DNA of 64,000 nt from Alphaproteobacteria bacterium. Its GTDB lineage: Bacteria > Pseudomonadota > Alphaproteobacteria > UBA11073. Below the pieces are notes generated by a model that ran no database searches, was not told where the DNA came from, and saw nothing but the letters and a program-made list of their open reading frames with translations. Location of the stretch: NCBI GenBank assembly GCA_965246755.1, contig OZ251979.1, positions 1,566,642 to 1,630,641 on the forward strand. Reading direction: 5' to 3'. Below are positions 2,102-52,247 of this stretch, in pieces (position 1 is the first letter of the stretch; the number at the start of each line of letters is the position of its first letter). The position numbers and the translations under genes are program-made.

Positions 2102-2539
2102 ATGGGAAATTTTGACATCACGGCAGTAGGATCTGCCACGACTCCATTTGCGGCCAACAAGGTCAGCACGCGTTTTGAACAGGCGGCCCAACCTCTCGAA
2201 ACGCCAAAACAGAATATAAACGCTCTTTCGCCGGGCCAAGCGGTTTATTTCTCGCCCGCTTTTAAATACGATGCTGAAGCGCAAGTGGTTATTTATGTGC
2301 AGCGCAACATTGAAACCGGCAATGTCATCAATCAATATCCATCCAAAAAAGTTGTCGAGCAATACCGGCAAACTGCGCAGGAAGGCAAAAAAACGGCCGC
2401 CCCGTTAAATTCAACAGTGATTGTACCAGCTGCGCCAAAAACGACTACGACAGCTAAAACGCTTCCTGTAGCACCTGTCCCAACAAGCACTGCAACCGCG
2501 CCGCAAGATGTCGTCGCGCCAGTACAAAGTGATGTTTAA
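2102..2539 (+). CDS. FlaG-like flagellar protein
   Basis: 145-aa ORF divergent from fliF; segment AEAQVVIYVQRNIETGNVINQYPSKKVVEQY fits the FlaG family pattern (D..G..VV.V.D..TGEVIRQIP.EEVL); Pro/Thr/Ala-rich C-terminal tail. Confidence 0.45.
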   Translation: MGNFDITAVGSATTPFAANKVSTRFEQAAQPLETPKQNINALSPGQAVYFSPAFKYDAEAQVVIYVQRNIETGNVINQYPSKKVVEQYRQTAQEGKKTAAPLNSTVIVPAAPKTTTTAKTLPVAPVPTSTATAPQDVVAPVQSDV

Positions 2540-2583: not shown

Positions 2584-4686
2584 TTAGGCGCTGGTATTAA
2601 CGCGGTTGCCGACCAGTGAAATCAAATCACTGCTGGAGCCGCTGCCATCCAAGATACTGGAATAAATAGAGGTTTTGGTATTGGTGCCATCCGCATCAGA
2701 GGCGGCCAGAAAACGTTTGATAAACTGGTCGACAAACTTGGGGTCTTTGAGCTTTTTAATGTCAAGATGACGCGAGAAAACCGCTTCTTGGGTTTCAATC
2801 GGCTGTTTGGCCATGCTGGTCGGCAATTGGAATACCTTGGCCACTACATCATGCAGGGCCTTGTCACCCATCAGATTATACATGTTGGTGATCGCGCCAG
2901 CATGTTTTTTAAAATAAACCGCGTAACGCAAAGCATTATTTTCATCACCCAAAGCGACTTCATACTGACTGGATCGATAATTTTTCTTTAACGTATCCAA
3001 AAAGGACATGGTGGTGGTGTTTTTAGCGTCCGCCGCCAAAGTGCTGGAGGGGCGATAAGTGGTCGTGCCAGCCTGGCCACTGTCGGTAAAATAACCAGTT
3101 TTATCGATAGCTTCCAGCAAAGCCGCCGGCTTCTCAAAGCTGGCGTTGGCAAGCTGATAAAGATTAATCTTTTTGGTTCCACTGCCATCCGCTTTGTTAT
3201 ATGTGGCACTGACAATACCGTTTTTATCGATATCGACGCTGGTGCGCTGGCCCAGTGCAATACTATCCATGGCAATCGGCTTAATCGCGTAATTGCCGCC
3301 GGCACGGCTGGTCATACCTGAAAAATCAATGCTGAGCGTTGACGGCCCGTAGCCGCGCTGCCAGTCAACCGCGACGCTGGCACTTTGCACGCTGTCGCCT
3401 GTTTTAATTTCAATCTTATTGGTATCCGTATTATAAGTGCCGGCGATTTTGACAGTGCCATCATTATTAAACTGAACATCAAGCGTACCGCCCAGCGTAT
3501 TCAAATCATCATTGTAGACCTTGACCTGCCAACGATTGGTACCAGCATCAACCTTGTTATATTCCAATCTCACGTTGCGTTTTAAACCGGTTTGATCATA
3601 AACGCCGGTCGTTTGCGAGAAATCAGCATGGTGCGCGAGCGATTTTAAATCAAATGCCTCTGTTGTGGTGCCGCCGGACCAGGTAAGGCTGGACGACAGG
3701 CTGGTTTTGCTGTCGCCATATATGGTGCTTAACTCACCATCGCTGCCAAACCCCAACGCATGAGTTCCAGATGTCAGCACGTTATTGCTACTGTCGGTGA
3801 CTGTAAAGCTCCACTGGTTGGTACTGCTGTCCGCACGGTTCAGCTTGACTTGAATAACCTGAGTGGCGCCGCTGGGATCCTTGACCGTTTGCGCCACACT
3901 GTAGGAATTGATGTTGGCAACTGGCTGGTCGCTATTTAAAATTGTTTGCGGTATCAGCGTTTGCGTGGGGGTAAATTTATTGTCAAACCAATTGACTTGG
4001 ACCGGTTTTATTTCCGCAGTTTGATATCCTTTTACCGCATTTGCTGCCGGCTGCAGCTGGCCGCGATTGTCCAGTTTCATGCCCATGGCATAAAATTTAT
4101 CCGCTGCCTGCAATTTACCATCCGCACCGACGGTTACCGACGCATTATTGCTGAACAAAGTTTTGATGGCGTCGCCGGTTGCTGTCTGTGACTGTACTTC
4201 AAAATAACGGTTGCCAATGGATTGCAACTTGAATTCATCCTTGCTGGTCGCGGTCTGCAGATTGGTCAGCCCGACATTAAAGATGTTCAAGTCTTTGGCC
4301 ATTTTGGCAAAGCGGCTGTCAGCCAGCTTGTTAACAAGTGAAGCCTTTAGGTTAGGGTCCTCCTTAAAAACTTTAGCTAAAATACCGGTTTTATTGGCTT
4401 CGGATTGCAAACCATAAGCGGTTAGCACATAGCCCACCAGCCGGCGGTCTTTTAAAAAATCATCGACAGATTTAATGGTTTTGATGGTTTTGTCGAAATA
4501 ATCCTGCTCACGTTTGATTTGCGGCGCGGCGGCAACTGTGGCCAGTTCTTTGGTATCGCCATTTTTTTGCAAAATGCCATAGGCGGCCTGCGCGGATAAA
4601 TCGCCTAAACCAGCCAAACCCGGTATGATGATCGAATTGATCGATGTCATCGCAATACAGTGACCTTTCTCGTCTGGCCGATGCAA
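2584..4686 (-). CDS. Flagellar-cluster protein with two DUF1217 domains (N- and C-terminal) flanking a ~400-aa FlgE-like (hook D1/D2-like) core; alternative start at 4650 (MTSINSII)
   Basis: N-terminal DYFDKTIKTIKSVDDFLKDRRLVGYVLTAYGL and C-terminal MGDKALHDVVAKVFQLP...DPKFVDQFIKRFL resemble DUF1217; internal SVDIDKNGIVSATYNKADGSGTKKINLYQLANASF is clearly homologous to the adjacent FlgE (GVEIDKDGIVSATFSNGTFAKLYKIPLATF). Confidence 0.7.
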   Translation of the reverse strand: MHRPDEKGHCIAMTSINSIIIPGLAGLGDLSAQAAYGILQKNGDTKELATVAAAPQIKREQDYFDKTIKTIKSVDDFLKDRRLVGYVLTAYGLQSEANKTGILAKVFKEDPNLKASLVNKLADSRFAKMAKDLNIFNVGLTNLQTATSKDEFKLQSIGNRYFEVQSQTATGDAIKTLFSNNASVTVGADGKLQAADKFYAMGMKLDNRGQLQPAANAVKGYQTAEIKPVQVNWFDNKFTPTQTLIPQTILNSDQPVANINSYSVAQTVKDPSGATQVIQVKLNRADSSTNQWSFTVTDSSNNVLTSGTHALGFGSDGELSTIYGDSKTSLSSSLTWSGGTTTEAFDLKSLAHHADFSQTTGVYDQTGLKRNVRLEYNKVDAGTNRWQVKVYNDDLNTLGGTLDVQFNNDGTVKIAGTYNTDTNKIEIKTGDSVQSASVAVDWQRGYGPSTLSIDFSGMTSRAGGNYAIKPIAMDSIALGQRTSVDIDKNGIVSATYNKADGSGTKKINLYQLANASFEKPAALLEAIDKTGYFTDSGQAGTTTYRPSSTLAADAKNTTTMSFLDTLKKNYRSSQYEVALGDENNALRYAVYFKKHAGAITNMYNLMGDKALHDVVAKVFQLPTSMAKQPIETQEAVFSRHLDIKKLKDPKFVDQFIKRFLAASDADGTNTKTSIYSSILDGSGSSSDLISLVGNRVNTSA

Positions 4687-4761: not shown

Positions 4762-5154
4762 TTACGATGCGACCGCGGCGGGTTCGGCAACGCGGCTTTT
4801 CGGTTTCAATCCTTCAATAATATGCTTGTTAACATCAATCAAACCATCCAAGGCGATGGTCTCGCTGTTAAGAATCCGAAATGTTTCCCGGTCTACCCAA
4901 TGCGACAAATCAATCAACTGCGTTTTAAGGACTAGCGGCAGGCCATTGTCAGGATTGGATAAATCCAGACGAAACACCGCCCATACCTCCCGGTTCCAGC
5001 AAACCGTATCAACTCGCTTGGCAACATCAGTTGGCGCGGCTTCCGCATCCATCAGCGCTGCCGTAACCTGGCCTAACAAGCGATATTCAACATCACGGCC
5101 GGAACCGGGACTAGCTTCCAGATTTTGGGTTTTGGTGTAAGCGTTATAAGACAT
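4762..5154 (-). CDS. flaF: Flagellar biosynthesis regulator FlaF
   Basis: 130-aa ORF MSYNAYTKTQNLEASPGSGRDVEYRLLGQVTAALMDA..., typical FlaF N-terminus, size and position next to flgE. Confidence 0.7.
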   Translation of the reverse strand: MSYNAYTKTQNLEASPGSGRDVEYRLLGQVTAALMDAEAAPTDVAKRVDTVCWNREVWAVFRLDLSNPDNGLPLVLKTQLIDLSHWVDRETFRILNSETIALDGLIDVNKHIIEGLKPKSRVAEPAAVAS

Positions 5155-5244
5155 GAGAGTTCTTCCCTGTGTATGTGTCAGCTTTTGATTTTAACGTCAA
5201 AATTTTAACAAATTATGAACGTTTATAAAAGCGGCTTTACTGCT

Positions 5245-5271
5245 GAAAAAAAGCCCCGCGTTCTGCGGGGC
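5245..5271 (-). terminator. Rho-independent terminator downstream of flgE
   Basis: GC hairpin gccccgcgttctgcggggc followed on the minus strand by a T-run (A7 on the plus strand at 5245-5252). Confidence 0.6.
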
Positions 5272-5307
5272 TGAGTTTGGTGGGTGGGAAAGAAACCGTC
5301 TGGTTAA

Positions 5308-6585
5308 TTAACGGATTTGCAACAGCGCATCGAGCATTTGGTCGGCGGTGGTAATTACCTTGGTACCAGCTGAATAAGCGCGCTGTGTTACAATCATGTT
5401 CGCAAATTCATCGGCCAGATCGACGTTGGAAGTTTCCAGCGAGGTTGGCGCGATCTGCCCTGCCCCGGCTTGGCCGGCTTCGCGCAGATTATAGTCGCCA
5501 CTGGCAGAGGTGACGCTATAGGCGTTACCGGATTGCTCTTCTAGGCCGTTTGGCGCGGTAAAGGTTGCCAACGGTATCTTGTATAATTTGGCAAAGGTAC
5601 CGTTACTAAAGGTTGCCGACACTATACCGTCTTTGTCGATTTCAACCCCGGTTCTAAGCCCTAAGGCCGCACCATCCTGAGTGATGCTGGTAACATTATA
5701 AGACGCTTGATATTGGGTGACTGCCGACAGGTCCAAGTCGATCGCTTGCGTGCTTGAGCCATTACCCCAGTTAATACCGGTAATGTTAATGTCGGTTGTA
5801 GTGGCGCTACCCGCGATCGCGTTCAATTTACCATTACCATCGAATGACAATACTTTCGGCGTGCCTAAACTGGCACCAGCGGCATTGGTCACATTCAACA
5901 GCCACTGGTTCGGCCCAGTCGTGCCCGCATTATTGACATTGGTGTGGGAAAACTTCAGCGTTATAGTCTGCGCGGCGCCGAGCGAGTCAAAGACCGTAAT
6001 CTGGCGTGAAAAGCTGGCTGGAGTCGCAGTAGCTGGCGTTGCCACTGTTTGCAAGACATCATCCGATTTTAAGTTTAGCGCAACGTTAGCATTGTTGGTG
6101 GCCTTGGTCTGACCGCCCAGGAATGAGACGTTGACCGGCTCAAGGCTGCTTAAGTTGGCGTTGGCGGACGGAATATTGCCGGCATTGTCCAGCGGCCAGC
6201 CATACAGCACCATGCCCGCCGTGTTGCGCAACAAGCCATTATTATCTTCCTGAAATGAACCGGCGCGTGTGTACAAAAACGGCTCATCATCAGTCGCATT
6301 CTGGCGCACCACGATAAAGCCTTCGCCGGAAATTGCGAGGTCGGTTGCCGACGCGGTTTGTTGCAAGACGCCTTGGGCATCAACTGATGATTTAGTATTC
6401 GCCAAGACACCACCTGGTGAATAAGCGCCGCCGCTGGCTGAGGTGACCAGTGAACTGAAATCAGTGTTGACCTTTTTATAACCAATCGTCCCGACATTCG
6501 CGATGTTATTGGAAATGGTTGACATTTTTTGACTTTGCGCGCTAAGCGCGGAAACCCCAGTAAATAATGCGCCGAATAATGACAT
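5308..6585 (-). CDS. flgE: Flagellar hook protein FlgE
   Basis: MSLFGALFTGVSALSAQSQKMSTISNNIANVGTIGYK N-terminal rod/hook motif; C-terminal NMIVTQRAYSAGTKVITTADQMLDALLQIR. Confidence 0.9.
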   Translation of the reverse strand: MSLFGALFTGVSALSAQSQKMSTISNNIANVGTIGYKKVNTDFSSLVTSASGGAYSPGGVLANTKSSVDAQGVLQQTASATDLAISGEGFIVVRQNATDDEPFLYTRAGSFQEDNNGLLRNTAGMVLYGWPLDNAGNIPSANANLSSLEPVNVSFLGGQTKATNNANVALNLKSDDVLQTVATPATATPASFSRQITVFDSLGAAQTITLKFSHTNVNNAGTTGPNQWLLNVTNAAGASLGTPKVLSFDGNGKLNAIAGSATTTDINITGINWGNGSSTQAIDLDLSAVTQYQASYNVTSITQDGAALGLRTGVEIDKDGIVSATFSNGTFAKLYKIPLATFTAPNGLEEQSGNAYSVTSASGDYNLREAGQAGAGQIAPTSLETSNVDLADEFANMIVTQRAYSAGTKVITTADQMLDALLQIR

Positions 6586-6630: not shown

Positions 6631-7302
6631 TTAAACGTTGCTGCCTGGTAAACTGGCTGAAAGGATTTTGGTCAAATCGGTTGGGATTTTGCCTAACATT
6701 AACTGCAAAGTGCCATCAGCGGCGTTCTGCACGCCGGTTACGCGATTGGTGACATAGGTCGTGGCAGCAACGGAACTGCCGTCTGCTGCCAATGATCCGA
6801 CCGATAGATGATATTGTCCCGCTTTAACAGCATTACCGTCATTATCGGTGCCGTCCCACACCGCAGTGTGACTGCCGATGGCGGTATCGCCATTGAGCGT
6901 TTTAACCAGGTTACCTTTATCATCGATGATGCCGATTTGCGTTTTGTTGGCGGTGCCAGCCAAGCTGTAGTCAATGTTGTAATTACCGCTGGCTGCATAG
7001 TTGAAATCATTGCCCGCCGTTTTAACATCGAGCCCGATATAGCTGAGCGCCGCCTGGGTCTGGATATTGCCTTGCAGGTTGACAAGGTTGGTCAGCTTGT
7101 CATTCATTTTGATCTGCTGTTCAACCTGGCTGTATTGCACCAGCTGCTGGGTAAACTGATTGGTATCGGTCGGCGCCAAAGGATCCTGGTTTTTCAATTG
7201 CGTGGTGAGCAATTTTAAAAACGTGTCGAAGTTGCCCGATAAAGATGTGGCATCTTTTTTAGTGGCGGTTGCTGACAGTGCAGCGTTGATTGCGTCAACC
7301 AT
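6631..7302 (-). CDS. flgD: Flagellar hook assembly/capping protein FlgD
   Basis: FDTFLKLLTTQLKNQDPLAPTDTNQFTQQLVQYSQVEQ motif; C-terminal FlgD Ig-like region with HTAVWDGTDNDGNAVKAGQY. Confidence 0.85.
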   Translation of the reverse strand: MVDAINAALSATATKKDATSLSGNFDTFLKLLTTQLKNQDPLAPTDTNQFTQQLVQYSQVEQQIKMNDKLTNLVNLQGNIQTQAALSYIGLDVKTAGNDFNYAASGNYNIDYSLAGTANKTQIGIIDDKGNLVKTLNGDTAIGSHTAVWDGTDNDGNAVKAGQYHLSVGSLAADGSSVAATTYVTNRVTGVQNAADGTLQLMLGKIPTDLTKILSASLPGSNV

Positions 7303-7313
7303 TGGTCGTCCCC

Positions 7314-8756
7314 TTATATTTTGACATCAACCCGGCCGTCATTGGTGGTGCCGTGTGGCAGCATCGCAAAGGTGCGGGTGACAGTATCTGTGTTTGATGT
7401 TGCAAGCATTGTGCCAAATGCATCATTGTGCGCGGCGGATTTGTGATTGTTTTGCTGTGGTGATTGTCCGCCGTCACGCAAACTGAAACTTAACGTATCG
7501 GCATTGGTATCAAGACCGGCGCTTTGCAACGCGGTTGTTAACGCATCTCCATCTTTTTGCATCAGCTCTAACGTGTCGGCTTTATCAGCGGCGATGTGCG
7601 CCTTGATACGGCCGCCATCAAAACGCAGACGCACTTCAATGCGGCCAAGCTCTTGCGGTTGCAATTGAATAAGCATGGTCTGATTATGACCGCTGAGCGC
7701 CAGTTTTTGCATTTGCACGCTGACCATAACGCTGGCAGGATGAACCGGGGTGGCGGTCCGGGCTTGCTGGGCCAGATAGGCATCCAGTTTTTCTGTGGTG
7801 ATATTAGTATTGTTGGTTGGCAGTGTTTGGGAAATCAACTGCATTGGCATAGTGTCCAAATTTTTATTATCGCTGGTTAGCAGCGGATTAAATTTGTCAT
7901 CACTAACCGCCGCCACCGCAATAGCTGGCTGTTCAACAACCGCGTTAGAAACTTCGGTCAGGTTAAGTATTTTTTCAGGTGCTGGAATGTCGCCGGCGGC
8001 CTCTATAGCATGCGGCGCCCGCAGATGTCCGGCCACGCGTGTCATGTACATAATCCCCGGATCTTTAACCGGTGTTAAGCTGACATTGGCATCGTTATCA
8101 GCCTGGGGCAGGCGTGCGGTGGTCGCCGCCACAGGATTTTCTGAAACGTCCGCAGTGTTTGTGCCATCATCATGTGCAACCGGCGCGGCTTGATCGGCGG
8201 ATTTCGCCAGCAACTGCTTGACCTTATCGTTCAAAGTCACGAGCAGGCTGGGGTCGTTGGTTGCGGTCATCTTACCCAACAGGTCTTTGAAACCTTGCGT
8301 TTGTGCGGCATCAGTGGCGGCAAATTTTTCGAGATCTTTTAAAACCGCCGGATCGAACTTGGCTGTTAGATCAGCTGATAATGTGTTGCCTTTGCTTAAC
8401 GCAGCCAAGGCGGCGCTCACATCGCCGGCTAACAGCTGGCCTGACATCAATTGTTGCAGATTTGGAAACTGCTGCAACAACGCTGCCAGCTTAGCCGTTT
8501 CGGCGTCGGATAGTTTTAAATCCTGATTGTCTTTGTGAGGTGTCGCCAGATTTTGAACTTTTTTCAGCAAGGCACTGCCTTTATCATTAAGCGCAGCCAA
8601 TTGACTGTCACCGGACAAAGCCGCCATTAGTTGCTGCAGAAAATCTTGCGGCGTATCTTGTTTATCAGCGATCACGGCACTGTTTTTAGCAGGGGCTGGC
8701 GCAGCCTGATTAACAAAAGTGGTGATTTGTGGTAATGCAGCCATGATGGATCCCAA
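7314..8756 (-). CDS. fliK: Flagellar hook-length control protein FliK
   Basis: Low-complexity N-terminal region; C-terminal Flg_hook-type domain (QPQELGRIEVRLRFDGGRIKAHIAADKADTLELMQKDGDALTTALQSAGL); position after flgD. Confidence 0.7.
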   Translation of the reverse strand: MGSIMAALPQITTFVNQAAPAPAKNSAVIADKQDTPQDFLQQLMAALSGDSQLAALNDKGSALLKKVQNLATPHKDNQDLKLSDAETAKLAALLQQFPNLQQLMSGQLLAGDVSAALAALSKGNTLSADLTAKFDPAVLKDLEKFAATDAAQTQGFKDLLGKMTATNDPSLLVTLNDKVKQLLAKSADQAAPVAHDDGTNTADVSENPVAATTARLPQADNDANVSLTPVKDPGIMYMTRVAGHLRAPHAIEAAGDIPAPEKILNLTEVSNAVVEQPAIAVAAVSDDKFNPLLTSDNKNLDTMPMQLISQTLPTNNTNITTEKLDAYLAQQARTATPVHPASVMVSVQMQKLALSGHNQTMLIQLQPQELGRIEVRLRFDGGRIKAHIAADKADTLELMQKDGDALTTALQSAGLDTNADTLSFSLRDGGQSPQQNNHKSAAHNDAFGTMLATSNTDTVTRTFAMLPHGTTNDGRVDVKI

Positions 8757-9039: not shown

Positions 9040-10230
9040 ATGGCAACGGCAGCATCAAAAAAGAAAATTGTATCTAAACAATTAGTTAAATCAAAAAAAC
9101 TTACAAAATCAGTTAAATCACCTGTGAAAGCAAAAATGCCAGTTAAAAAAACGGTCGCCAAAAACATCACAACAAAAACAAAAGCCGTCACTAAACCTGT
9201 CGTTACAAAAACCGTTAAAGCTACTCAGTCTAAAGTCAAAGCTAAAAGTATGCCGGTCAAAGGTAAGGTAGCTAGCAAGGCGAAGCCGGTGGCGAAAAAG
9301 GTTGTAAAGCCAGTGGCTAAAAAAGCCGTGTCCAAGCCTATGGCCAAAACTCTTGCAAAAAAAACCATCATTCAAAAGCCGGTTGCCAAAGCCGCTAAAA
9401 TTGTAGCAAAACCGGCCATCACCGCAAAAACCGTGACTAAAGTCAGTAAGGCGGCCGCCGTGCAGCCTGCTAATAATAATCAGCTGCCTGCAATTGCCGT
9501 CGCCGCGCCGAAAAAGGTTAAAGCGCCAGCGCGCAACAAGAAACAAAAGGCGCTGGATAAAAAACTGGCGCGGACTTTGGTTAAAATCGCTAATGCCGGC
9601 CGCACCGGTCTGGCCAGCACGGGCGTGCAATCCGCGGCGGATGCCGCGTTGCGCGCCACGATGGCGATGGCCGCCAATACCAATAATGCACAAACCGCCG
9701 CGCCAGTGGTGGCGGTGGCTCCGGCCCAGCCAGCCAAATTGGAATTCTCCACCGGTGAAATGGTGGTCTATCCCGCCCACGGCGTTGGCCGGGTGGAAGG
9801 CGTTGAAACGCACACGATTGCCGGTACGGATGTCAAACTGTTCAAAATTACCTTTGAACATGACAAGATGACGTTAAAAGTGCCGGTGCAACGCGCCACC
9901 GGCTCCGGTCTGCGCCGCCTGTCGTCCAAGGATGTCATGAAAAATGCCATGGAAACACTGCGTGGCCGCCCGCGCATTCGCCGCGTCATGTGGTCACGCC
10001 GTGCGCAGGAATATGAGCAAAAGATTAACAGCGGCGATCCGGTCGCCATTGCCGAGGTCTTGCGCGACCTGCGCCGCAACGCGGAGTCGGGCGAGCAGTC
10101 TTATAGCGAACGTCAAATCTTTCAGAACGCGTTAGATCGTTTGGCGCGTGAAGTGGCTGCGGTTGAAAAAATTGAACATGAGAAAGCCGTTAAAAAATTG
10201 GAAGATGTGTTGACAAAAACGGCGGCCTAA
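9040..10230 (+). CDS. cdnL: CarD/CdnL-family transcription factor with ~230-aa N-terminal histone-H1-like Lys/Ala/Val/Thr-rich domain
   Basis: C-terminal 165 aa: FSTGEMVVYPAHGVGRVEGVETHTIAGTDVKLFKITFEHDKMTLKVPV...SERQIFQNALDRLAREVA = CarD_CdnL_TRCF domain; N-terminal KKxVAKP/KAVTKP repeats. Confidence 0.8.
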   Translation: MATAASKKKIVSKQLVKSKKLTKSVKSPVKAKMPVKKTVAKNITTKTKAVTKPVVTKTVKATQSKVKAKSMPVKGKVASKAKPVAKKVVKPVAKKAVSKPMAKTLAKKTIIQKPVAKAAKIVAKPAITAKTVTKVSKAAAVQPANNNQLPAIAVAAPKKVKAPARNKKQKALDKKLARTLVKIANAGRTGLASTGVQSAADAALRATMAMAANTNNAQTAAPVVAVAPAQPAKLEFSTGEMVVYPAHGVGRVEGVETHTIAGTDVKLFKITFEHDKMTLKVPVQRATGSGLRRLSSKDVMKNAMETLRGRPRIRRVMWSRRAQEYEQKINSGDPVAIAEVLRDLRRNAESGEQSYSERQIFQNALDRLAREVAAVEKIEHEKAVKKLEDVLTKTAA

Positions 10231-17668: not shown

Positions 17669-19645
17669 TTAAATGACGTTTTTATTGAGTGCGGCTTTTT
17701 GCCGCAATTCGCGATCCAGTTTACGTTTCAATTCATCCTGGTTAAATGGTTTAGAGATATAATCTGTCATCCCGGCACTCAGGCATTTTTCGCGATCGCC
17801 TGCCAGCGCATAAGCCGTCATGCCAATGATCGATATTGGCGGCAAATTATGCATTTTTTCATGCTGGCGGATTTGCGCGGTGGCTTCCAATCCATTCATG
17901 TTCGGCATTTGCACATCCATGAGGATGGCATCGTAAATGTGTGCGGTTGCCTTTTCAATCGCCTCATGGCCGTTGTTGGCAACCTCATAACGATAACCAA
18001 AATGTTCTAAAATCGTGGTTGCCACCAGAATATTCGGTGCATAATCTTCCACTAATAAAATTAACGGTGCGTTAGCAGGTTGTTCCAATTTATCAAATTG
18101 AATTATCGAAGCGGTCGGATAGTGAACCGCGGCAGCGGGTTTTTTTTCTTTGGCAATTGTAAGCGGCAATATCACGGTAAAGGTTGAACCCTGGCCCATC
18201 GTGCTGTCCAACGTCACACTGCCATGCATATTTTCTACCAATGATTTGGTAATCGCCAGACCGAGGCCGGTGCCGCCGTAATGACGGTTAATGCTGGTAT
18301 CTGCCTGAATAAATTTTTGAAATATCGCCTCGCGCTTTTCTTCGGCAATGCCAATGCCAGTGTCTGACACTGCTATCACAATATTTTCAGAGTTTTTTTG
18401 CGCGCCAGGCTCAGTGTGAATTTTGATATTTACGATACCTTGCGTGGTAAATTTAATGGCATTACTGCATAAATTCATAATTATCTGGCGCAGCCGCGTG
18501 GTGTCACCAATAAAATTTTTATGACGGATGCTTTCAATATCAGTCATGAGCGACAGATTTTTTTCTACAGCCCGCACGCTCAATATATTGATAATTTCCT
18601 TCATTAAATCATAAAAATTAAACTGTATCTGTTCTAGTTCAAAGCTGCGCGACTCAATTTTAGAAATATCTAGCAGGTCGTTAATCAGAGCCAGTAAGGT
18701 ATCCGCGCTCAGCTGCAGCGTTTTGATAAACTCTTTTTGCTGGGGCGTCAGCGGCACACTGACCGCCAAAATATTCGCAAGACCGATCACCACATTCATT
18801 GGCGTGCGGATTTCATGGCTCATATTCGCCAAAAATTCCGACTTCGCTAGATTGGCTTCTTCGGCTTTTTCCTTGGCCTCACGCAGCGTATTTTCCAATA
18901 ACCGCTGGTCGGTGATATCGGTCGCGGTACCGAACCAGCGCAATATTTTACCTTTATCATCCTGCATCGGCATTGCGCCGGCTAAAAACCAGCGATAGTC
19001 GCCGTCTTTACCGCGCAGCGGGAATGTCGCCTCCCACTTTTCGCCTTTGGTCACCATCGCATCCCGATACTGCATAAAATCTTTATAATAATCAGGGTGA
19101 TGGATTTTAACGCGTTCTTTGTCGGACATCGTTTTAAACGTGTAACCGGTATAGTCATAAAACCGCTGATTGTACCAGGTTGTCTGGCCCGCCGCATCGG
19201 TCATCCAGGCCAACTGCGGAATCGCATTGGCCATTTGGCGAAATCTTTCCTCGCTGCGTTCAACTTCGTCTTCGGCGCGTTTACGCGATGTTACATCCGA
19301 CAATGAAAATACCACGCCCAAAAATTCATGGCCGTTTAAAATCGGCTGGGCGGCGATCCGGAACCAATTGCCATGGTGATCAAACGATTCACGGTATTGG
19401 GGTTGGCAGGTTTCCTTGACTAATTGCAGTGCAATTGGCGTATGCTGATAATTGAGACTGGCCAGGTAATCGCGGAGATTTTCTGACTTTAAGCGGTCCG
19501 CATCCAGCGGCATGATATGCCCCAACGCGCGATTATGTCGCACCATCATCAAATCTTTATCTAGCAAACATATGCCATCGGGCAACGAGTCAAAAATTAT
19601 TGACCACTCATTATCAAAAATTGGTTGCGGTTGGGTCGTGGACAT
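17669..19645 (-). CDS. Hybrid sensor histidine kinase/response regulator with PAS domains
   Basis: HisKA H-box MSHEIRTPMN, HATPase_c, C-terminal receiver (LLVEDYAPN...DAILMDVQMPNMNG). Confidence 0.85.
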   Translation of the reverse strand: MSTTQPQPIFDNEWSIIFDSLPDGICLLDKDLMMVRHNRALGHIMPLDADRLKSENLRDYLASLNYQHTPIALQLVKETCQPQYRESFDHHGNWFRIAAQPILNGHEFLGVVFSLSDVTSRKRAEDEVERSEERFRQMANAIPQLAWMTDAAGQTTWYNQRFYDYTGYTFKTMSDKERVKIHHPDYYKDFMQYRDAMVTKGEKWEATFPLRGKDGDYRWFLAGAMPMQDDKGKILRWFGTATDITDQRLLENTLREAKEKAEEANLAKSEFLANMSHEIRTPMNVVIGLANILAVSVPLTPQQKEFIKTLQLSADTLLALINDLLDISKIESRSFELEQIQFNFYDLMKEIINILSVRAVEKNLSLMTDIESIRHKNFIGDTTRLRQIIMNLCSNAIKFTTQGIVNIKIHTEPGAQKNSENIVIAVSDTGIGIAEEKREAIFQKFIQADTSINRHYGGTGLGLAITKSLVENMHGSVTLDSTMGQGSTFTVILPLTIAKEKKPAAAVHYPTASIIQFDKLEQPANAPLILLVEDYAPNILVATTILEHFGYRYEVANNGHEAIEKATAHIYDAILMDVQMPNMNGLEATAQIRQHEKMHNLPPISIIGMTAYALAGDREKCLSAGMTDYISKPFNQDELKRKLDRELRQKAALNKNVI

Positions 19646-38681: not shown

Positions 38682-40634
38682 ATGACGCTTCGAAATTTCA
38701 AGCCAACGCTGCCGAATATCATCGTGCCGGTCATTGCATTGCTGTTGCTGACCTTTGTTGGCGTTGGCCTGATCATGACACACGCCGTCAATATCCTGGA
38801 TGATCAGTATAACAAGGCGCGCATTAAATCGGTGGAAGCGGTTTTAAAAATGCAGACTGAAAAGGTTGCCGAAAGTTTGGCCAGCTATGCCTATTGGGAC
38901 GACAGCGTCGAACATTTCATTTTAAAATATGATCCGAAGTGGGCCAAAGATGTCATCGGCGATATCGTGCCCGAACAACAAAGCATTGAATATATTTTAG
39001 TTTATAATCCGCAAGGCAAAATCATCTACACCTATCCGGATAAGATTACCGATCAAATCCTGCTGGACAATGCCAAATACGCGGTCGATAATTTGCACGA
39101 AACGATGCATTACAATCCGCAGCGCGTTTTTACCGCGGTCAACCTGTCGCAGGACCGCAAAGTTGAAGTGCTGGCGGCTACTTTTATCCGGGGCCATGAA
39201 AAAAATTATCCTGATTTTGCCGAACAGGGTATTATGGTTTTCGTTAACAAAGTCCAAGACGATGAAGAAGTCGCCACGCTCGAAGAACAAATGTGGGTAT
39301 CCGACCTGCGGGTGGAAAATTACGCGCCGTCCAATACCCCATCCATCCGGTTGCGTAATCCCAATCAGGATACAATCGGTTATCTGACCTGGACGCACGT
39401 GCCGCTATCACGCGAGCTGTTACGCGTCACCGCCATCCCCGTGACGATTGGCTTTATACTTATTATGCTGGCCGGTTACATCATTTTGACGCGCAGCCGC
39501 CGCGCCATTACCGGTCTGGTAGAAAGCGAAGCCAATATTCGTTACATGGCGGCGGGCATTGATGCCGCCAACGCGCCGATTGCAATTATCAGCACGGTCG
39601 ATCAGACCTATCCGTTCATTTATATCAATCCGGCATTTCGCGCGCTGACCGGTTATCATTTTGATGAAATCCACCGAGCAAGTCTGGACATTCTAAACGG
39701 CTTTGCAACCGCGCCGGAGGTGCCGCAAATCTGGCGTGAGGCGATACGCAATTTGCAGAGCGCCAAATATGAAAGCCTTTATTACCGTAAGGATAAAAGC
39801 AGCTTTTGGGGTGAAATTAATCTGTCACCCATTTTCGACCAGCGCAATTCCATGATCGGTTATGTGTTGCAGATGCGCGATATTTCGATTGAGCGCCGCG
39901 AGCATGATGTCAAAATCCATCGCGACAAAATGCTGTCGCTGGGACAAATGGTAGGTGGCGTCGCGCATGAAATTAATAACCTGATGCAACCGGCCCTGAC
40001 TTTCTCGCAAATCACTATGAATAAATTACCTGAAGGCGACCTGGAAAACCGCGATCATCTGAATAATGTAGTCGATTGCTGCCGCCGCGTGATTGCGATT
40101 ATCAAAAATATGATGACTTTTTCGCGCCAGGGCGAAACCACGTTGACTGCACAGCCGTTGGGCCCATTGGTGCTGCGTGATCTAGCGGTCGTGCGCGAAC
40201 TGATGCCGCAAACTTTGACGATTATTGATGACAACCTGTCACTGTATCAAATCCCTGTAAAAGTGAATGAGTGCCAGGTGGCGCAACTGCTGTCCAATAT
40301 ACTGCTTAATTCCGTATGGGCGACCGACCGTACCGGCACTGTCAAAATATCACTGGAAACCAAAGCCGTCGCCGGCAACCAGGCCGACAGCATGCTGCTA
40401 TCACCTGGCAATTACGCAGTGCTAACCATCGCCGATGATGGCGTGGGTATGGATGACGCAACAATGGCACGTATCTTTGAGCCATTCTTTTCAGCGCGGC
40501 CTATCGGCCAAGGAGTCGGGCTGGGCTTGTCAATTGTATACAGCATCGTCAAAACCTGGCATGGCGCGATTAAAGTGACATCAGCACCCGGTCAAGGCGC
40601 GCGCTTTGACATTTATATTCCAGTTGAGACCTAA
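38682..40634 (+). CDS. Sensor histidine kinase (two TM segments, periplasmic domain, PAS, HisKA, HATPase)
   Basis: H-box GGVAHEINNLMQP; G-boxes in the C-terminal HATPase_c. Confidence 0.85.
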   Translation: MTLRNFKPTLPNIIVPVIALLLLTFVGVGLIMTHAVNILDDQYNKARIKSVEAVLKMQTEKVAESLASYAYWDDSVEHFILKYDPKWAKDVIGDIVPEQQSIEYILVYNPQGKIIYTYPDKITDQILLDNAKYAVDNLHETMHYNPQRVFTAVNLSQDRKVEVLAATFIRGHEKNYPDFAEQGIMVFVNKVQDDEEVATLEEQMWVSDLRVENYAPSNTPSIRLRNPNQDTIGYLTWTHVPLSRELLRVTAIPVTIGFILIMLAGYIILTRSRRAITGLVESEANIRYMAAGIDAANAPIAIISTVDQTYPFIYINPAFRALTGYHFDEIHRASLDILNGFATAPEVPQIWREAIRNLQSAKYESLYYRKDKSSFWGEINLSPIFDQRNSMIGYVLQMRDISIERREHDVKIHRDKMLSLGQMVGGVAHEINNLMQPALTFSQITMNKLPEGDLENRDHLNNVVDCCRRVIAIIKNMMTFSRQGETTLTAQPLGPLVLRDLAVVRELMPQTLTIIDDNLSLYQIPVKVNECQVAQLLSNILLNSVWATDRTGTVKISLETKAVAGNQADSMLLSPGNYAVLTIADDGVGMDDATMARIFEPFFSARPIGQGVGLGLSIVYSIVKTWHGAIKVTSAPGQGARFDIYIPVET

Positions 40635-49712: not shown

Positions 49713-52247
49713 ATGGCAGAACGCACCGCTCAGCAACCCCGGATCCAGCCCGAACGGTATACCAACCGCTGGCGCAGCACGGTTATTCTGGTCCCGATGG
49801 TGGGGGTCGTGCTATCGCTGCTGGTCAGTTTTTACCTGCTGTTCAATCTGCTGGAAAGCAATAAGTCCCAGCTTTACAACCAGATCAATGCCATTACTAA
49901 ATCTTATCAGGATCGCCTAAACGGCATTAACAGTATCACCTCATCACTGCGCGCCTATGTGTCGCAATCGGATGATGTGCGGCAAAGCGGATTTAATCAG
50001 ATTTATAAATCGATGAATCCGCAGGAACAAACCGTGCTGGGCGCCTTTTGGCTGTTGCGCGATGGCAATGATTTTCATGTCTTTCGCTATTCCGACATTG
50101 GCGCCAATCTCAACAAAATCGAAGAGTCTTTTAATCAAAACAGCTCGCTGCGCGCGGTGCAGGCTGAAACCGCCGATGATAAAATCGGCATCATCCTTAA
50201 TCTGCCGGGCAGCATGTTCGGCATTACCGAAAAACAGGTGTCACTGGTGCTGCTGCGCGCCAATAACAGCGCCAACATGGAAGGCTATGTAGTGCTGCTG
50301 GTCCAGCAAATGTTTCCGGTGGCGCTAAACAGCAACACGCCTGGTATTCTGGATATGACGGTCAATTTAAAAACCCGCGTCGGCATGACCACACTTTATC
50401 ATGAAAAAAATGATGGCGGCCCGACCTGGCTGCCGCAGACGTACCCCACCCGTACGCTCAACTTCCGTAATCAAGCCTGGCAGCTAAAATTTACGGCGAT
50501 TGAAACCGGTGTCACGCCCGGCATGTTCGCAATGCCGATTTTCATTTTGCTAGCCGGTTTTGGCTTTACCTTCGCACTGACCAGCAGTGTTGTCGTTACC
50601 CAGCGCCGCGCCGCCAAAATCGCCAACCTTGCCTCATCAATTGATAAAACCAACAAAGAACTAAAAAGCCGGATTGAAGAACGAGATAAAATCGCCGAAA
50701 CGCTGCGCAATAACGACCGGGAATTTCGCGCCGTTATTAACGGTGTCAACGACGTTATTTTTGAAACCAATTCGCTTGGTACCTTGGCCTTTGTTAACGC
50801 GTCATGGACCGCGCTGACCGGGTTTGACATTCGCGAAACACTGACCAAATCCCTGTTTGATTTCGTGCAGGATGCCGACCGCCAAACGCTGCAAAATCAT
50901 TTTAACAATGTCCTGTCGGGCGAGGAAAGCAACCGCCGGCATGAGGTGCGCCTGCTGCGCAAAACCGGCGGTTTCCGTTTAGTCGAAATTTCACTACGGT
51001 CGCTGCGCCGCGCCGGTTATGCCACTGTGCGCGTGGTTGGCATGATGACCGATGTTTCGGAACGCCGCCGCCAGGAAGCACAATTGCGCGAAGCTGAACA
51101 GAAATACCGCGCCATGGTTGAAAATTCCGTCGCGGGTTTTTTCCAGGCGACACCCGATGGCCGCTATATCAGCGTCAACCCCGCTTTCTCGCATATCATG
51201 GGCTATGACAGTCCGGCTGAACTGGTCAATATGATCAAGGATATTCGTGATGATGTTTATCTCGACGGCAGCAATTGGGATACCTTCGTCAATCAATTGG
51301 CCGAAGAAGGCGCGATTACCGAACATGAGGCGCGCGTGCGGCGCAAGGATGCCGCGATTATCTGGGTTGCCATCAATGCCCGCGCGGTGCGCGATGAAGA
51401 AGGCCAGGTGCTGTATTACGATGGCACGCTGGAACATGTGACGCGCCGTAAAGAAGCCGAGATCGATCTGCGTTCCGCCATGGAACAGGCGGATATGGCC
51501 AACCGCGCCAAATCGGAATTTCTCGCCAACATGTCGCATGAGCTGCGCACCCCGCTGAATGCCATTATCGGCTTTTCAGAAATTATCCGTGACGAAATGT
51601 TCGGTCCGGTCGAACGCCGTGATTATGTCGAATATGCGCGTGATATTCATGGCTCCGGCACACACTTGTTGGAACTGATCAATGACATTCTTGATGTGTC
51701 GAAAATTGAAGCCGGTAAAAAGGAACTGAATGAAAATCTGTTTGATCTTGGCCGTGTCAGTAAATCCTGTCTCGATCTCGTCAAAACCCGTGCAGAAAAC
51801 GGCAAACTGACGCTTATCAACGACGTGCCAACCAACCTGCCGCCCATCTATGGCGAGGAACTTGCCATCAAACAGGTGATTGTAAATCTGTTGTCCAATG
51901 CTGTAAAATTCACGCCCGAAGGCGGCAAGGTCGTTTTGTCCGCATACTTGGAAAGCGATGGCCGCTTGCGCATTTGGGTTAGCGATAGTGGGATTGGCAT
52001 TCGCCAGGAAGATATCGCCAAGGTGCTAATACCGTTCGGCCAGGTGGATAGTTCGTTTGCCCGCCGTTACGCTGGTACTGGCCTGGGTCTGACATTGGTT
52101 ATTTCCCTCGTCGAATTGCATGGCGGTGAATTCAAACTGGAAAGCGTGTTTGGCAAAGGCACCGATGCGTCATTCTGGTTGCCTGCTGAACGCATCATCA
52201 CCAGTAATTATGATACGTTATTAAAGAAAGAGTTGGCGGCGCCTTAA
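49713..52247 (+). CDS. PAS-domain sensor histidine kinase (two TM segments, periplasmic region, 2x PAS, HisKA, HATPase)
   Basis: RAKSEFLANMSHELRTPLNAIIGFSE H-box; C-terminal G1/G2 boxes. Confidence 0.85.
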   Translation: MAERTAQQPRIQPERYTNRWRSTVILVPMVGVVLSLLVSFYLLFNLLESNKSQLYNQINAITKSYQDRLNGINSITSSLRAYVSQSDDVRQSGFNQIYKSMNPQEQTVLGAFWLLRDGNDFHVFRYSDIGANLNKIEESFNQNSSLRAVQAETADDKIGIILNLPGSMFGITEKQVSLVLLRANNSANMEGYVVLLVQQMFPVALNSNTPGILDMTVNLKTRVGMTTLYHEKNDGGPTWLPQTYPTRTLNFRNQAWQLKFTAIETGVTPGMFAMPIFILLAGFGFTFALTSSVVVTQRRAAKIANLASSIDKTNKELKSRIEERDKIAETLRNNDREFRAVINGVNDVIFETNSLGTLAFVNASWTALTGFDIRETLTKSLFDFVQDADRQTLQNHFNNVLSGEESNRRHEVRLLRKTGGFRLVEISLRSLRRAGYATVRVVGMMTDVSERRRQEAQLREAEQKYRAMVENSVAGFFQATPDGRYISVNPAFSHIMGYDSPAELVNMIKDIRDDVYLDGSNWDTFVNQLAEEGAITEHEARVRRKDAAIIWVAINARAVRDEEGQVLYYDGTLEHVTRRKEAEIDLRSAMEQADMANRAKSEFLANMSHELRTPLNAIIGFSEIIRDEMFGPVERRDYVEYARDIHGSGTHLLELINDILDVSKIEAGKKELNENLFDLGRVSKSCLDLVKTRAENGKLTLINDVPTNLPPIYGEELAIKQVIVNLLSNAVKFTPEGGKVVLSAYLESDGRLRIWVSDSGIGIRQEDIAKVLIPFGQVDSSFARRYAGTGLGLTLVISLVELHGGEFKLESVFGKGTDASFWLPAERIITSNYDTLLKKELAAP

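Follow-up and report, generated by a model that had tools for sequence, protein, structure and literature searches.

The window analysed here, a stretch of 64,000 nucleotides (nt) from an alphaproteobacterium (contig OZ251979.1, positions 1,566,642 to 1,630,641), encodes on its minus strand, at 2584..4650, a protein that combines a DUF1217 domain with an inserted core of the flagellar hook protein FlgE. This protein, designated here as X, lies directly downstream of flaF and two genes from the genuine flgE gene. Flagellar clusters of many alphaproteobacteria encode DUF1217 proteins, among them clusters from Rhizobiales, Rhodobacterales, Rhodospirillales and Brucella. The only DUF1217 structure, PDB 2O8S, has been available since 2007; in the searchable literature, the family has just two passing mentions, and nothing functional was found on Atu0559/SMc03023/2O8S, FlbY or FlaEY. 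As far as the searchable literature shows, the combination of DUF1217 with a FlgE core is undescribed, while both parts are known families. Through guilt by association, the fusion hints at a physical site of action at the hook, and it opens an "enigmatic" family to experiments on whether its members bind FlgE, are exported and reside at the hook or junction. It thereby offers a clue to a widespread flagellar family that may be essential and to how FliD-less flagella begin their filaments.

Architecture of protein X

The Pfam scan proposed in a first-pass annotation of this DNA detected both of the expected families above their cut-offs, each in two stretches: DUF1217 (PF06748) at 125.7 bits (cut-off 22.9), which places X in the family, and FlgE_D2 at 37.8 bits (cut-off 22.7). 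The two DUF1217 stretches match successive parts of the profile, with positions 1-50 at amino acids (aa) 78-127 of X and positions 49-149 at aa 540-640. Likewise, 2O8S aligns with X in two collinear pieces (E=2.5e-30), residues 59-172 with aa 22-136 and residues 178-301 with aa 556-677. Since the halves cover successive profile positions and successive 2O8S residues, the termini of X are complementary halves of one DUF1217 fold and not two DUF1217 domains. The first-pass description of DUF1217 flanks around a FlgE core is thus retained, but its count of two domains is not. The DUF1217 domain of X is broken after profile position ~50 by ~410 aa, and the insertion site corresponds to the loop between 2O8S residues 172 and 178. 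In a modelled short DUF1217 protein, this loop comprises residues ~149-155 and lies between two helices. The all-helical fold of 2O8S is found in X. The interruption makes X an insertion variant of DUF1217 and does not exclude it from the family.

The structural comparison that had also been proposed gave a concordant picture. A Foldseek search with the AlphaFold2 model of X (mean predicted local distance difference test score, pLDDT, 71.6) returned FlgE at ranks 1-14 and 16-21 and 2O8S at rank 15.

The reading frame had been given as 2584-4686, encoding 700 aa, with no strand. It is uninterrupted over this interval and lies on the minus strand; the plus-strand reading was ruled out, its translation being full of stops. 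The frame opens with a TTG at 4686, but translation likely begins 36 nt further downstream, with the ATG at 4650, because homologues begin there and a protein in the public data (P0001), identical to X, has 688 aa; the product would thus begin with MTSINSIIIPGLAGLG. Separately, the called start of a relative, P0013 (L037 4479-4542), seems to make that protein too short, because a tblastn alignment with X extends from residue 1, 63 nt upstream. The gene and the segments of its product, all on the minus strand, are as follows.

2584..4650, minus strand: gene X, 688 aa, stop codon at 2584-2586 (from the open reading frame (ORF) list, the translation and homologue starts)
4594..4650, minus strand: N-terminal tail, aa 1-19; IPG[IL]AGLG conserved in the X family, low to intermediate pLDDT, no Sec signal peptide
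4243..4593, minus strand: N-terminal helical DUF1217 half, aa 20-136 (Pfam, 2O8S alignment, model)
3916..4242, minus strand: FlgE-like D1 N-terminal segment, aa 137-245; low-confidence model including the loop at aa 190-217 (family profile)
3631..3915, minus strand: D2a, first FlgE D2-like beta module, aa 246-340; pLDDT 75-90 (Pfam, D2-module hidden Markov model (HMM))
3295..3630, minus strand: D2b, second D2-like beta module, aa 341-452; nearer to FlgE D2 than D2a is
3046..3294, minus strand: D1 C-terminal segment, aa 453-535; motif DS.ALG...ID.NG.VSATY...LY.LA...F, the best-conserved part of the core in the family alignment
3004..3045, minus strand: linker back to the helical domain, aa 536-549; pLDDT <50 over aa 513-547
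2686..3003, minus strand: C-terminal helical DUF1217 half, aa 550-655 (Pfam, 2O8S alignment, model)
2587..2685, minus strand: Ser/Gly-rich C-terminal tail, aa 656-688; low confidence, ending in a short conserved amphipathic stretch

The N-terminal tail is possibly a flagellar type III export signal.

The similarity between the central part of X and the D1/D2 core of the neighbouring FlgE was borne out by several comparisons. In composition-adjusted BLASTP, aa 339-536 of X matched FlgE residues 187-382 (E=9e-16, 29% identity over ~200 aa), and aa 132-366 matched FlgE residues 76-318 (E=1e-10) in a segment pair that is collinear with the first and overlaps it. Such overlap between collinear pairs is the signature of a D1N-D2-D2'-D1C order. 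When segments were compared alone by BLAST, the D1 C-segment was 45% identical to FlgE residues 296-350 (E=2e-11), and the D1 N-segment gave no significant pairwise match (E=0.5). A D1 N-segment profile built from nine family members, however, aligned with FlgE residues 81-178 at 98.8% probability (E=9e-17, hhalign). Both peptides quoted in the first-pass annotation are present and can be aligned with each other. That annotation had named low-complexity Thr/Ser/Gly bias as an explanation that would undo the claim; the similarity survives composition adjustment and is far above chance.

The single D2 implied by the first-pass annotation gives way to two. The Pfam FlgE_D2 profile matched D2b (E=1.2e-10) and D2a (E=5e-4) when each segment was searched alone, and D2a was also recovered by the D2-module HMM (E=1.6e-8). 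The two modules are 26% identical (E=2e-7), and the HMM likewise counts two; a BLAST comparison of X with itself did not reveal an internal repeat, but the direct module comparison and the module HMM did. The insert thus corresponds to FlgE residues ~76-382, which span both D1 segments and the D2 between them, except that it holds two copies of D2. This range, we presume, is roughly the crystallised, protease-resistant and independently folding FlgE31 core (PDB 1WLG). Since the N- and C-ends of the core lie together where D0 would attach, the D1-D2 core is geometrically suited to insertion into a loop.

X has the D1 and D2 core of the FlgE/FlgEFG axial family and lacks the parts that form the inner tube of the hook. 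As the first-pass annotation had noted, X has neither the N-terminal rod/hook motif nor the C-terminal D0 helix. Pfam found no Flg_bb_rod in the full protein at E<=0.1 or in its N-terminal 137 aa at E<=1, and no Flg_bbr_C in X; the adjoining FlgE carries both. Unfiltered searches with HMMs made from the FlgE termini of the lineage itself gave nothing significant in X or its relatives (best E of 0.06-0.96 on the X family, in a tiny database). On the same grounds, a candidate vestige of a FlgE terminus, an N-terminal "LSAQ" resemblance in X, was set aside as superficial. The two DUF1217 halves take the topological place of the absent D0 N- and C-helices and Dc, and it is reasonable to infer from the missing D0 termini that X cannot polymerise as an axial subunit.

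These results bear directly on the reading that X is a second, divergent FlgE subunit that co-polymerises into the hook. Its D1 and D2 are clearly FlgE-like, and X is encoded two genes from flgE. However, both D0 helices and Dc are replaced by a globular helical domain of ~230 residues. Among the NCBIfam FlgE equivalogs, only NF004238 matched X, with 53.3 bits where the cut-off is 400, and TIGR03506 gave no match. To our knowledge, all known axial proteins need terminal heptad helices to build the tube, as in the structures of FlgE, FlgG, FlgK and FliC. The missing termini effectively refute a hook paralogue, which we consider very improbable. X also lacks the N- and C-terminal domains and the fold of FliD, and homology to FliD or FlgD was undetectable in sequence or fold.

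Distribution, variation and origin of the insertion

An exhaustive HMMER search with the X core against 1.84 billion cluster representatives returned 26 matches at E<1e-3. The top 10 are all DUF1217 proteins (588-899 aa; two are fragments) in which the domain is interrupted at one shared profile position. The other 16 are 28-56% identical to the FlgE of the window, and P0019 and P0020 among them are genuine FlgE proteins according to Pfam. The architecture is therefore rare, with ~10 clusters among these representatives, all in one uncultured lineage. By its TopA, which is 65% identical to that of a metagenome-assembled genome (MAG) of Rhodospirillaceae and ~60% identical to those of Vineibacter, Stellaceae, Inquilinus and Acetobacteraceae, the organism falls within an uncultured lineage near Rhodospirillales sensu lato.

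Because every X-family cluster is a metagenome-derived singleton and the core is rich in Thr, Ser, Asn and Gly, we considered whether the protein is an assembly chimera, a decaying fusion or a case of composition-driven similarity. The ~10 independent assemblies come from different samples, and in them the ORFs are intact, the split and the neighbours are the same, and the members are 28-44% identical to one another. Composition-corrected BLAST, Pfam thresholds, profile-profile comparison and two structure searches are moreover concordant. An artefact is already refuted by this conservation, which marks a real gene under selection, and has next to no probability in our estimation.

The outer part of the insert varies within the family: according to the module HMM, members carry one, two, three or four D2-like modules. 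In the relatives with three or four (P0002, P0003, P0011, P0012 and P0014), the extra modules are not beside the other D2 but are nested inside the D1 N-segment, between an LDNxGN motif and a PVQVNWF strand (family alignment columns ~230-340). This site coincides with the low-confidence loop at aa 190-217 of X.

Since all 16 of the other core matches are related to the lineage's own FlgE, the distribution suggests that the insert arose when part of a related alphaproteobacterial flgE gene was duplicated, plausibly the flgE gene two genes upstream of X. One insertion site and one gene order across all family members argue for a single ancient fusion event. X would thus be a clean case of domain grafting within one gene cluster, in which the D1-D2 core moved into a loop of a neighbouring gene's product, was freed of its polymerisation helices, and then had its outer module amplified from one copy to as many as four.

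The first-pass annotation had left to synteny the question of whether counterparts in other flagellar clusters carry the insert. Those sampled in our plasmid and MAG searches of Rhodobacterales, Rhizobiales and Rhodospirillales do not. A scan of species-representative genomes with three X-family sequences recovered only insert-less relatives, from Acetobacteraceae, Tagaea, Rhodopila and other Rhodospirillales-type MAGs; the window's own genome was not recovered. In these loci (e.g., L023 and L010), the order is flgE-flgK-flgL-flagellin-(flbT)-flaF-DUF1217, and the last gene encodes one uninterrupted domain of 270-278 aa. The short form is abundant, with 1,869 matches at E<1e-5 named "DUF1217 domain-containing" or "hypothetical". 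A protein of 490 aa with tetratricopeptide repeats (TPR) and a methyltransferase domain is encoded downstream of the short form in an Acetobacteraceae-type locus (L023 8726-10198; L044 7794-8906). This protein may modify flagellin or be an FlbA-like factor, and X has no such neighbour.

A flagellin-flaF-flbT-DUF1217 block is also present on plasmids of Marinovum, Azospirillum and C. sphaeroides 2.4.1 (124-kb). X matches the DUF1217 protein of the C. sphaeroides plasmid at E=4e-13 and the Marinovum protein with both halves at E~1e-15, the insert falling between Marinovum residues 121 and 134. In both position and sequence, X therefore corresponds to the flaF-linked DUF1217 protein, to which it adds a hook core. 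On the Azospirillum plasmids, the gene immediately before the DUF1217 gene is annotated as FlaG. In other bacteria, flaG is usually found with fliD, and flaG-fliD-fliS is a common operon.

The naming of these proteins deserves a remark. The flbT-adjacent DUF1217 protein MALG_04530 of Marinovum algicola pMaD5 (L043 6968-7783) bears the label "Flagellar basal-body rod protein FlgF", and a Liberibacter paper gives a DUF1217 protein as "similar to FlgF". Such labels are probably propagated mis-annotations, because the Rhizobiales DUF1217 gene adjoins flgF.

Gene neighbourhood of X

The order fliK-flgD-flgE-flaF-X is found in every X-family member with genomic context, and X directly follows flaF in all family loci examined. 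The features around X in the window are as follows.

4762..5154, minus strand: flaF, directly upstream of X with a 111-nt gap (Pfam FlaF E=1.9e-26)
5308..6585, minus strand: flgE, genuine hook protein of 425 aa with Flg_bb_rod, D1, D2 and Flg_bbr_C; nearest relative of the insert
6631..7302, minus strand: flgD, hook-assembly gene upstream (Pfam)
7314..8756, minus strand: fliK, hook-assembly gene upstream (Pfam)
71-1774, strand not stated: fliF, flagellar gene of the window
2102..2539, plus strand: FlaG-like ORF of 145 aa, convergent with X (NCBIfam FlaG at E=0.089 only, no Pfam match)
5252..5272, minus strand: terminator-like GC hairpin and T-run, AGCCCCGC-AGAAC-GCGGGGCT followed by TTTTTTT, with an 8-bp stem of which 7 pairs are GC (consensus scan only)
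5202..5229, minus strand: sigma-70-like promoter match upstream of flaF, TTTATA-16-TAAAAT with TG (consensus match only, weak)

The flaF gene is the likely operon partner of X. The hairpin after flgE and the promoter-like site before flaF suggest that flaF-X is transcribed apart from, and possibly later than, fliK-flgD-flgE. Between the stop codons of X and of the FlaG-like ORF there are 45 nt, and a palindrome is present at 2529-2545. The FlaG-type motif of this ORF (...VVIYVQRNIETGNVINQYPS...) is shared with a 132-aa ORF beside X in another family locus (L039, E=6e-4), where thiamine genes lie between X and fliF.

In the X lineage, flaF directly follows flgE without flbT (the window and loci L001, L002 and L037-L042). 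The usual flgK-flgL-flagellin-flbT block is missing from the X locus, and the flagellar genes are scattered among housekeeping genes. Neither flgK, flgL, flagellin and flbT genes nor a second DUF1217 gene was found within the 64-kb window, and Rfam and tRNA scans gave nothing relevant near X. The remainder of the window is housekeeping, with topA, the RNase R gene, argS, accC and several sensor kinase genes. Three of these encode large sensor histidine kinases, at 17669-19645 (minus strand), 38682-40634 (plus strand) and 49713-52247 (plus strand), with hybrid BarA/ArcB-like, CckA-like and DivJ/PdhS-like matches. This density is notable for a 1.9-Mb genome, and the set may relate to CtrA-type control of flagellar genes.

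Possible role of X and comparison with known systems

X has features reminiscent of exported flagellar proteins. It contains no cysteine in 688 aa, and eight X-family members together have one in ~6,200 residues, in P0014 (MACLKGEQ...), whose N-terminus is probably over-extended. No cysteine is present in the 33,762 residues of 120 short DUF1217 proteins (P0155-P0274; 60-96% identical to the query), and each tandem-repeat and insert-bearing member (P0002-P0017) has 0-1. The DUF1217 family is essentially cysteine-free, a trait not reported in the two papers mentioning DUF1217. FlgE, FlgD and FliK of the window also lack cysteine, and its housekeeping proteins contain 0.1-2.1%. In the model of the short form, the first ~37 residues are disordered, and inspection of the X sequence showed no evident signal peptide. 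This composition and the disordered N-terminus are suggestive of a flagellar type III substrate.

A functional clue comes from CP1 of Phaeobacter inhibens (PGA1_c23640), a protein of the Rhodobacterales fla1 cluster. The study of this protein describes the cluster on the 124-kb plasmid of C. sphaeroides as fliC-flaF-flbT-CP1 (PMC12363192). Because this description matches the order flagellin-flaF-flbT-DUF1217 on that plasmid, we infer that Rhodobacterales CP1 is the flaF-linked DUF1217 protein. CP1 mutants of P. inhibens are non-motile and without flagella by electron microscopy, some cells bear an odd polar structure, and the mutant exoproteome retains most flagellar proteins, including rod, hook and junction proteins and the flagellin FliC (PMC12363192). 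FliD is absent in P. inhibens, as it is in Rhizobiaceae. Where FliD is present, loss of fliD results in secreted flagellin and no filament (e.g., PMC5072837). CP1 loss thus resembles FliD loss. If CP1 is a DUF1217 protein, a member of the family is essential for the flagellum even though flagellin is exported.

Taken together, we tentatively favour a reading in which X is a substrate of the flagellar type III system that is tethered to the hook by its D1-D2(n) module. X would leave the cell through this system and act late, when the filament and not the hook is being built, given that the CP1 mutant secretes flagellin without a flagellum, that FliD is absent, and that the terminator-like hairpin separates flgE from flaF-X. 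The DUF1217 globule would perform the task of the family, which in P. inhibens may be turning secreted flagellin into a filament. The D1-D2(n) module would present the lateral faces employed by FlgE subunits within the hook lattice and would thereby tether X to the hook or its distal end, while X, having no D0 or Dc, could not enter the axial tube. The one to four outer D2 modules would behave like the exposed outer domains of FlgE, FliC and FliD.

Several points weigh against this proposal. The D1 N-segment and the linkers of X are of low confidence in the AlphaFold2 model. The equation of CP1 with DUF1217 comes from the gene order of one plasmid and a sentence of the paper, not from the P. 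inhibens CP1 sequence. CP1 itself was not detected in the P. inhibens exoproteome (PMC12363192), and in a near-saturating motility screen of A. fabrum the motA-adjacent DUF1217 gene was not among the 37 required genes. The 120 short proteins are not independent of one another, which makes the cysteine signal indicative only, and FliF and a 396-aa ORF (9040-10230) are also cysteine-free, so the trait does not single out exported proteins. For both the promoter and the terminator, the calls are no more than matches to a consensus.

A rival reading places X inside the cell, as a cytoplasmic checkpoint or regulator acting with FlaF (FlbT elsewhere) in the post-transcriptional control of flagellin. 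The FlgE core would then be an intracellular mimic of the hook subunit that binds, for example, FlgD, FliK or the export gate, and flagellin synthesis would be coupled to hook completion. X directly follows flaF, probably in the same transcription unit, and the short form follows flaF-flbT across alphaproteobacteria. The absence of CP1 from the exoproteome also fits, as does the view of the CP1 authors, who find its function enigmatic and propose that it may be a chaperone or keep assembly from starting too early (PMC12363192). However, the CP1 mutant still makes and secretes flagellin, unlike a mutant that has lost a positive flagellin regulator. A cysteine-free family with a disordered N-terminus and variable beta modules also looks more like exported axial proteins, and X diverges much faster (28-44% identity) than FlgE (51-61%) and FlaF (56-66%) in the same loci. 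We consider a regulatory role unlikely.

The phenotype of CP1 mutants also raises the question of whether DUF1217/CP1 substitutes for FliD as a cap or initiates the filament at the junction, with X having gained a FlgE beta "head" that echoes the helical-leg and beta-plate plan of FliD and FlgD. Flagellin that leaves the cell without forming a filament is the classical phenotype of fliD, flgK and flgL mutants, and FliD is missing from P. inhibens and Rhizobiaceae. DUF1217 genes adjoin flagellin and flaF genes, a FlaG-like gene is nearby in Azospirillum and in the window, and the composition is export-like. A cap, on the other hand, should be outside the cell, where CP1 was not detected, and the presence of several DUF1217 paralogues and tandem-repeat forms per genome is unusual for one. 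We regard this possibility as decidedly unlikely, and we give equally little credence to the broader claim that DUF1217/CP1 is the missing extracellular filament-assembly factor of FlaF/FlbT-type flagella and that the X fusion marks its docking at the distal hook or junction. If the filament-factor reading were true, X would be a natural "Rosetta-stone" fusion.

Among known systems, X is closest to the flaF/flbT-linked single-domain DUF1217 proteins (~260-290 aa), with which it shares homologous halves, the slot after flaF(-flbT), the lack of cysteine, the lack of a signal peptide and a disordered N-terminus. These proteins have an uninterrupted helical domain, whereas X carries the ~410-aa FlgE core; in the X lineage, moreover, flbT does not adjoin flaF. 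AGR_C_984p of Agrobacterium tumefaciens, the protein of 2O8S, resembles X in its collinear two-piece match but has no insert, its residues ~173-177 being replaced by the insert in X. The Rhizobiales DUF1217 gene also differs from X in its slot, which lies between motA and flgF (Brucella table). The tandem-repeat DUF1217 proteins (710-850 aa; Aurantimonas, Hyphomicrobium and others) share with X the helical unit, a similar length and the absence of cysteine, but they consist of four to five DUF1217 repeats without a FlgE-like region and align to 14-20% of X. Caulobacter FlaEY, possibly of the tandem-repeat type, and FlbY may also contain DUF1217.

The core of X follows the D1N, D2, D1C order of the FlgE D1-D2 region, as in Salmonella FlgE31 (PDB 1WLG) and the Caulobacter fragment 5AY6. 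FlgE, however, has D0-N, Dc and D0-C, whereas the X core is embedded in another protein and its D2 is duplicated (one to four copies in relatives). With the FliD and FlgD caps, X shares by analogy only a combination of helical parts with beta domains and, as proposed for X, a late or transient role in axial assembly.

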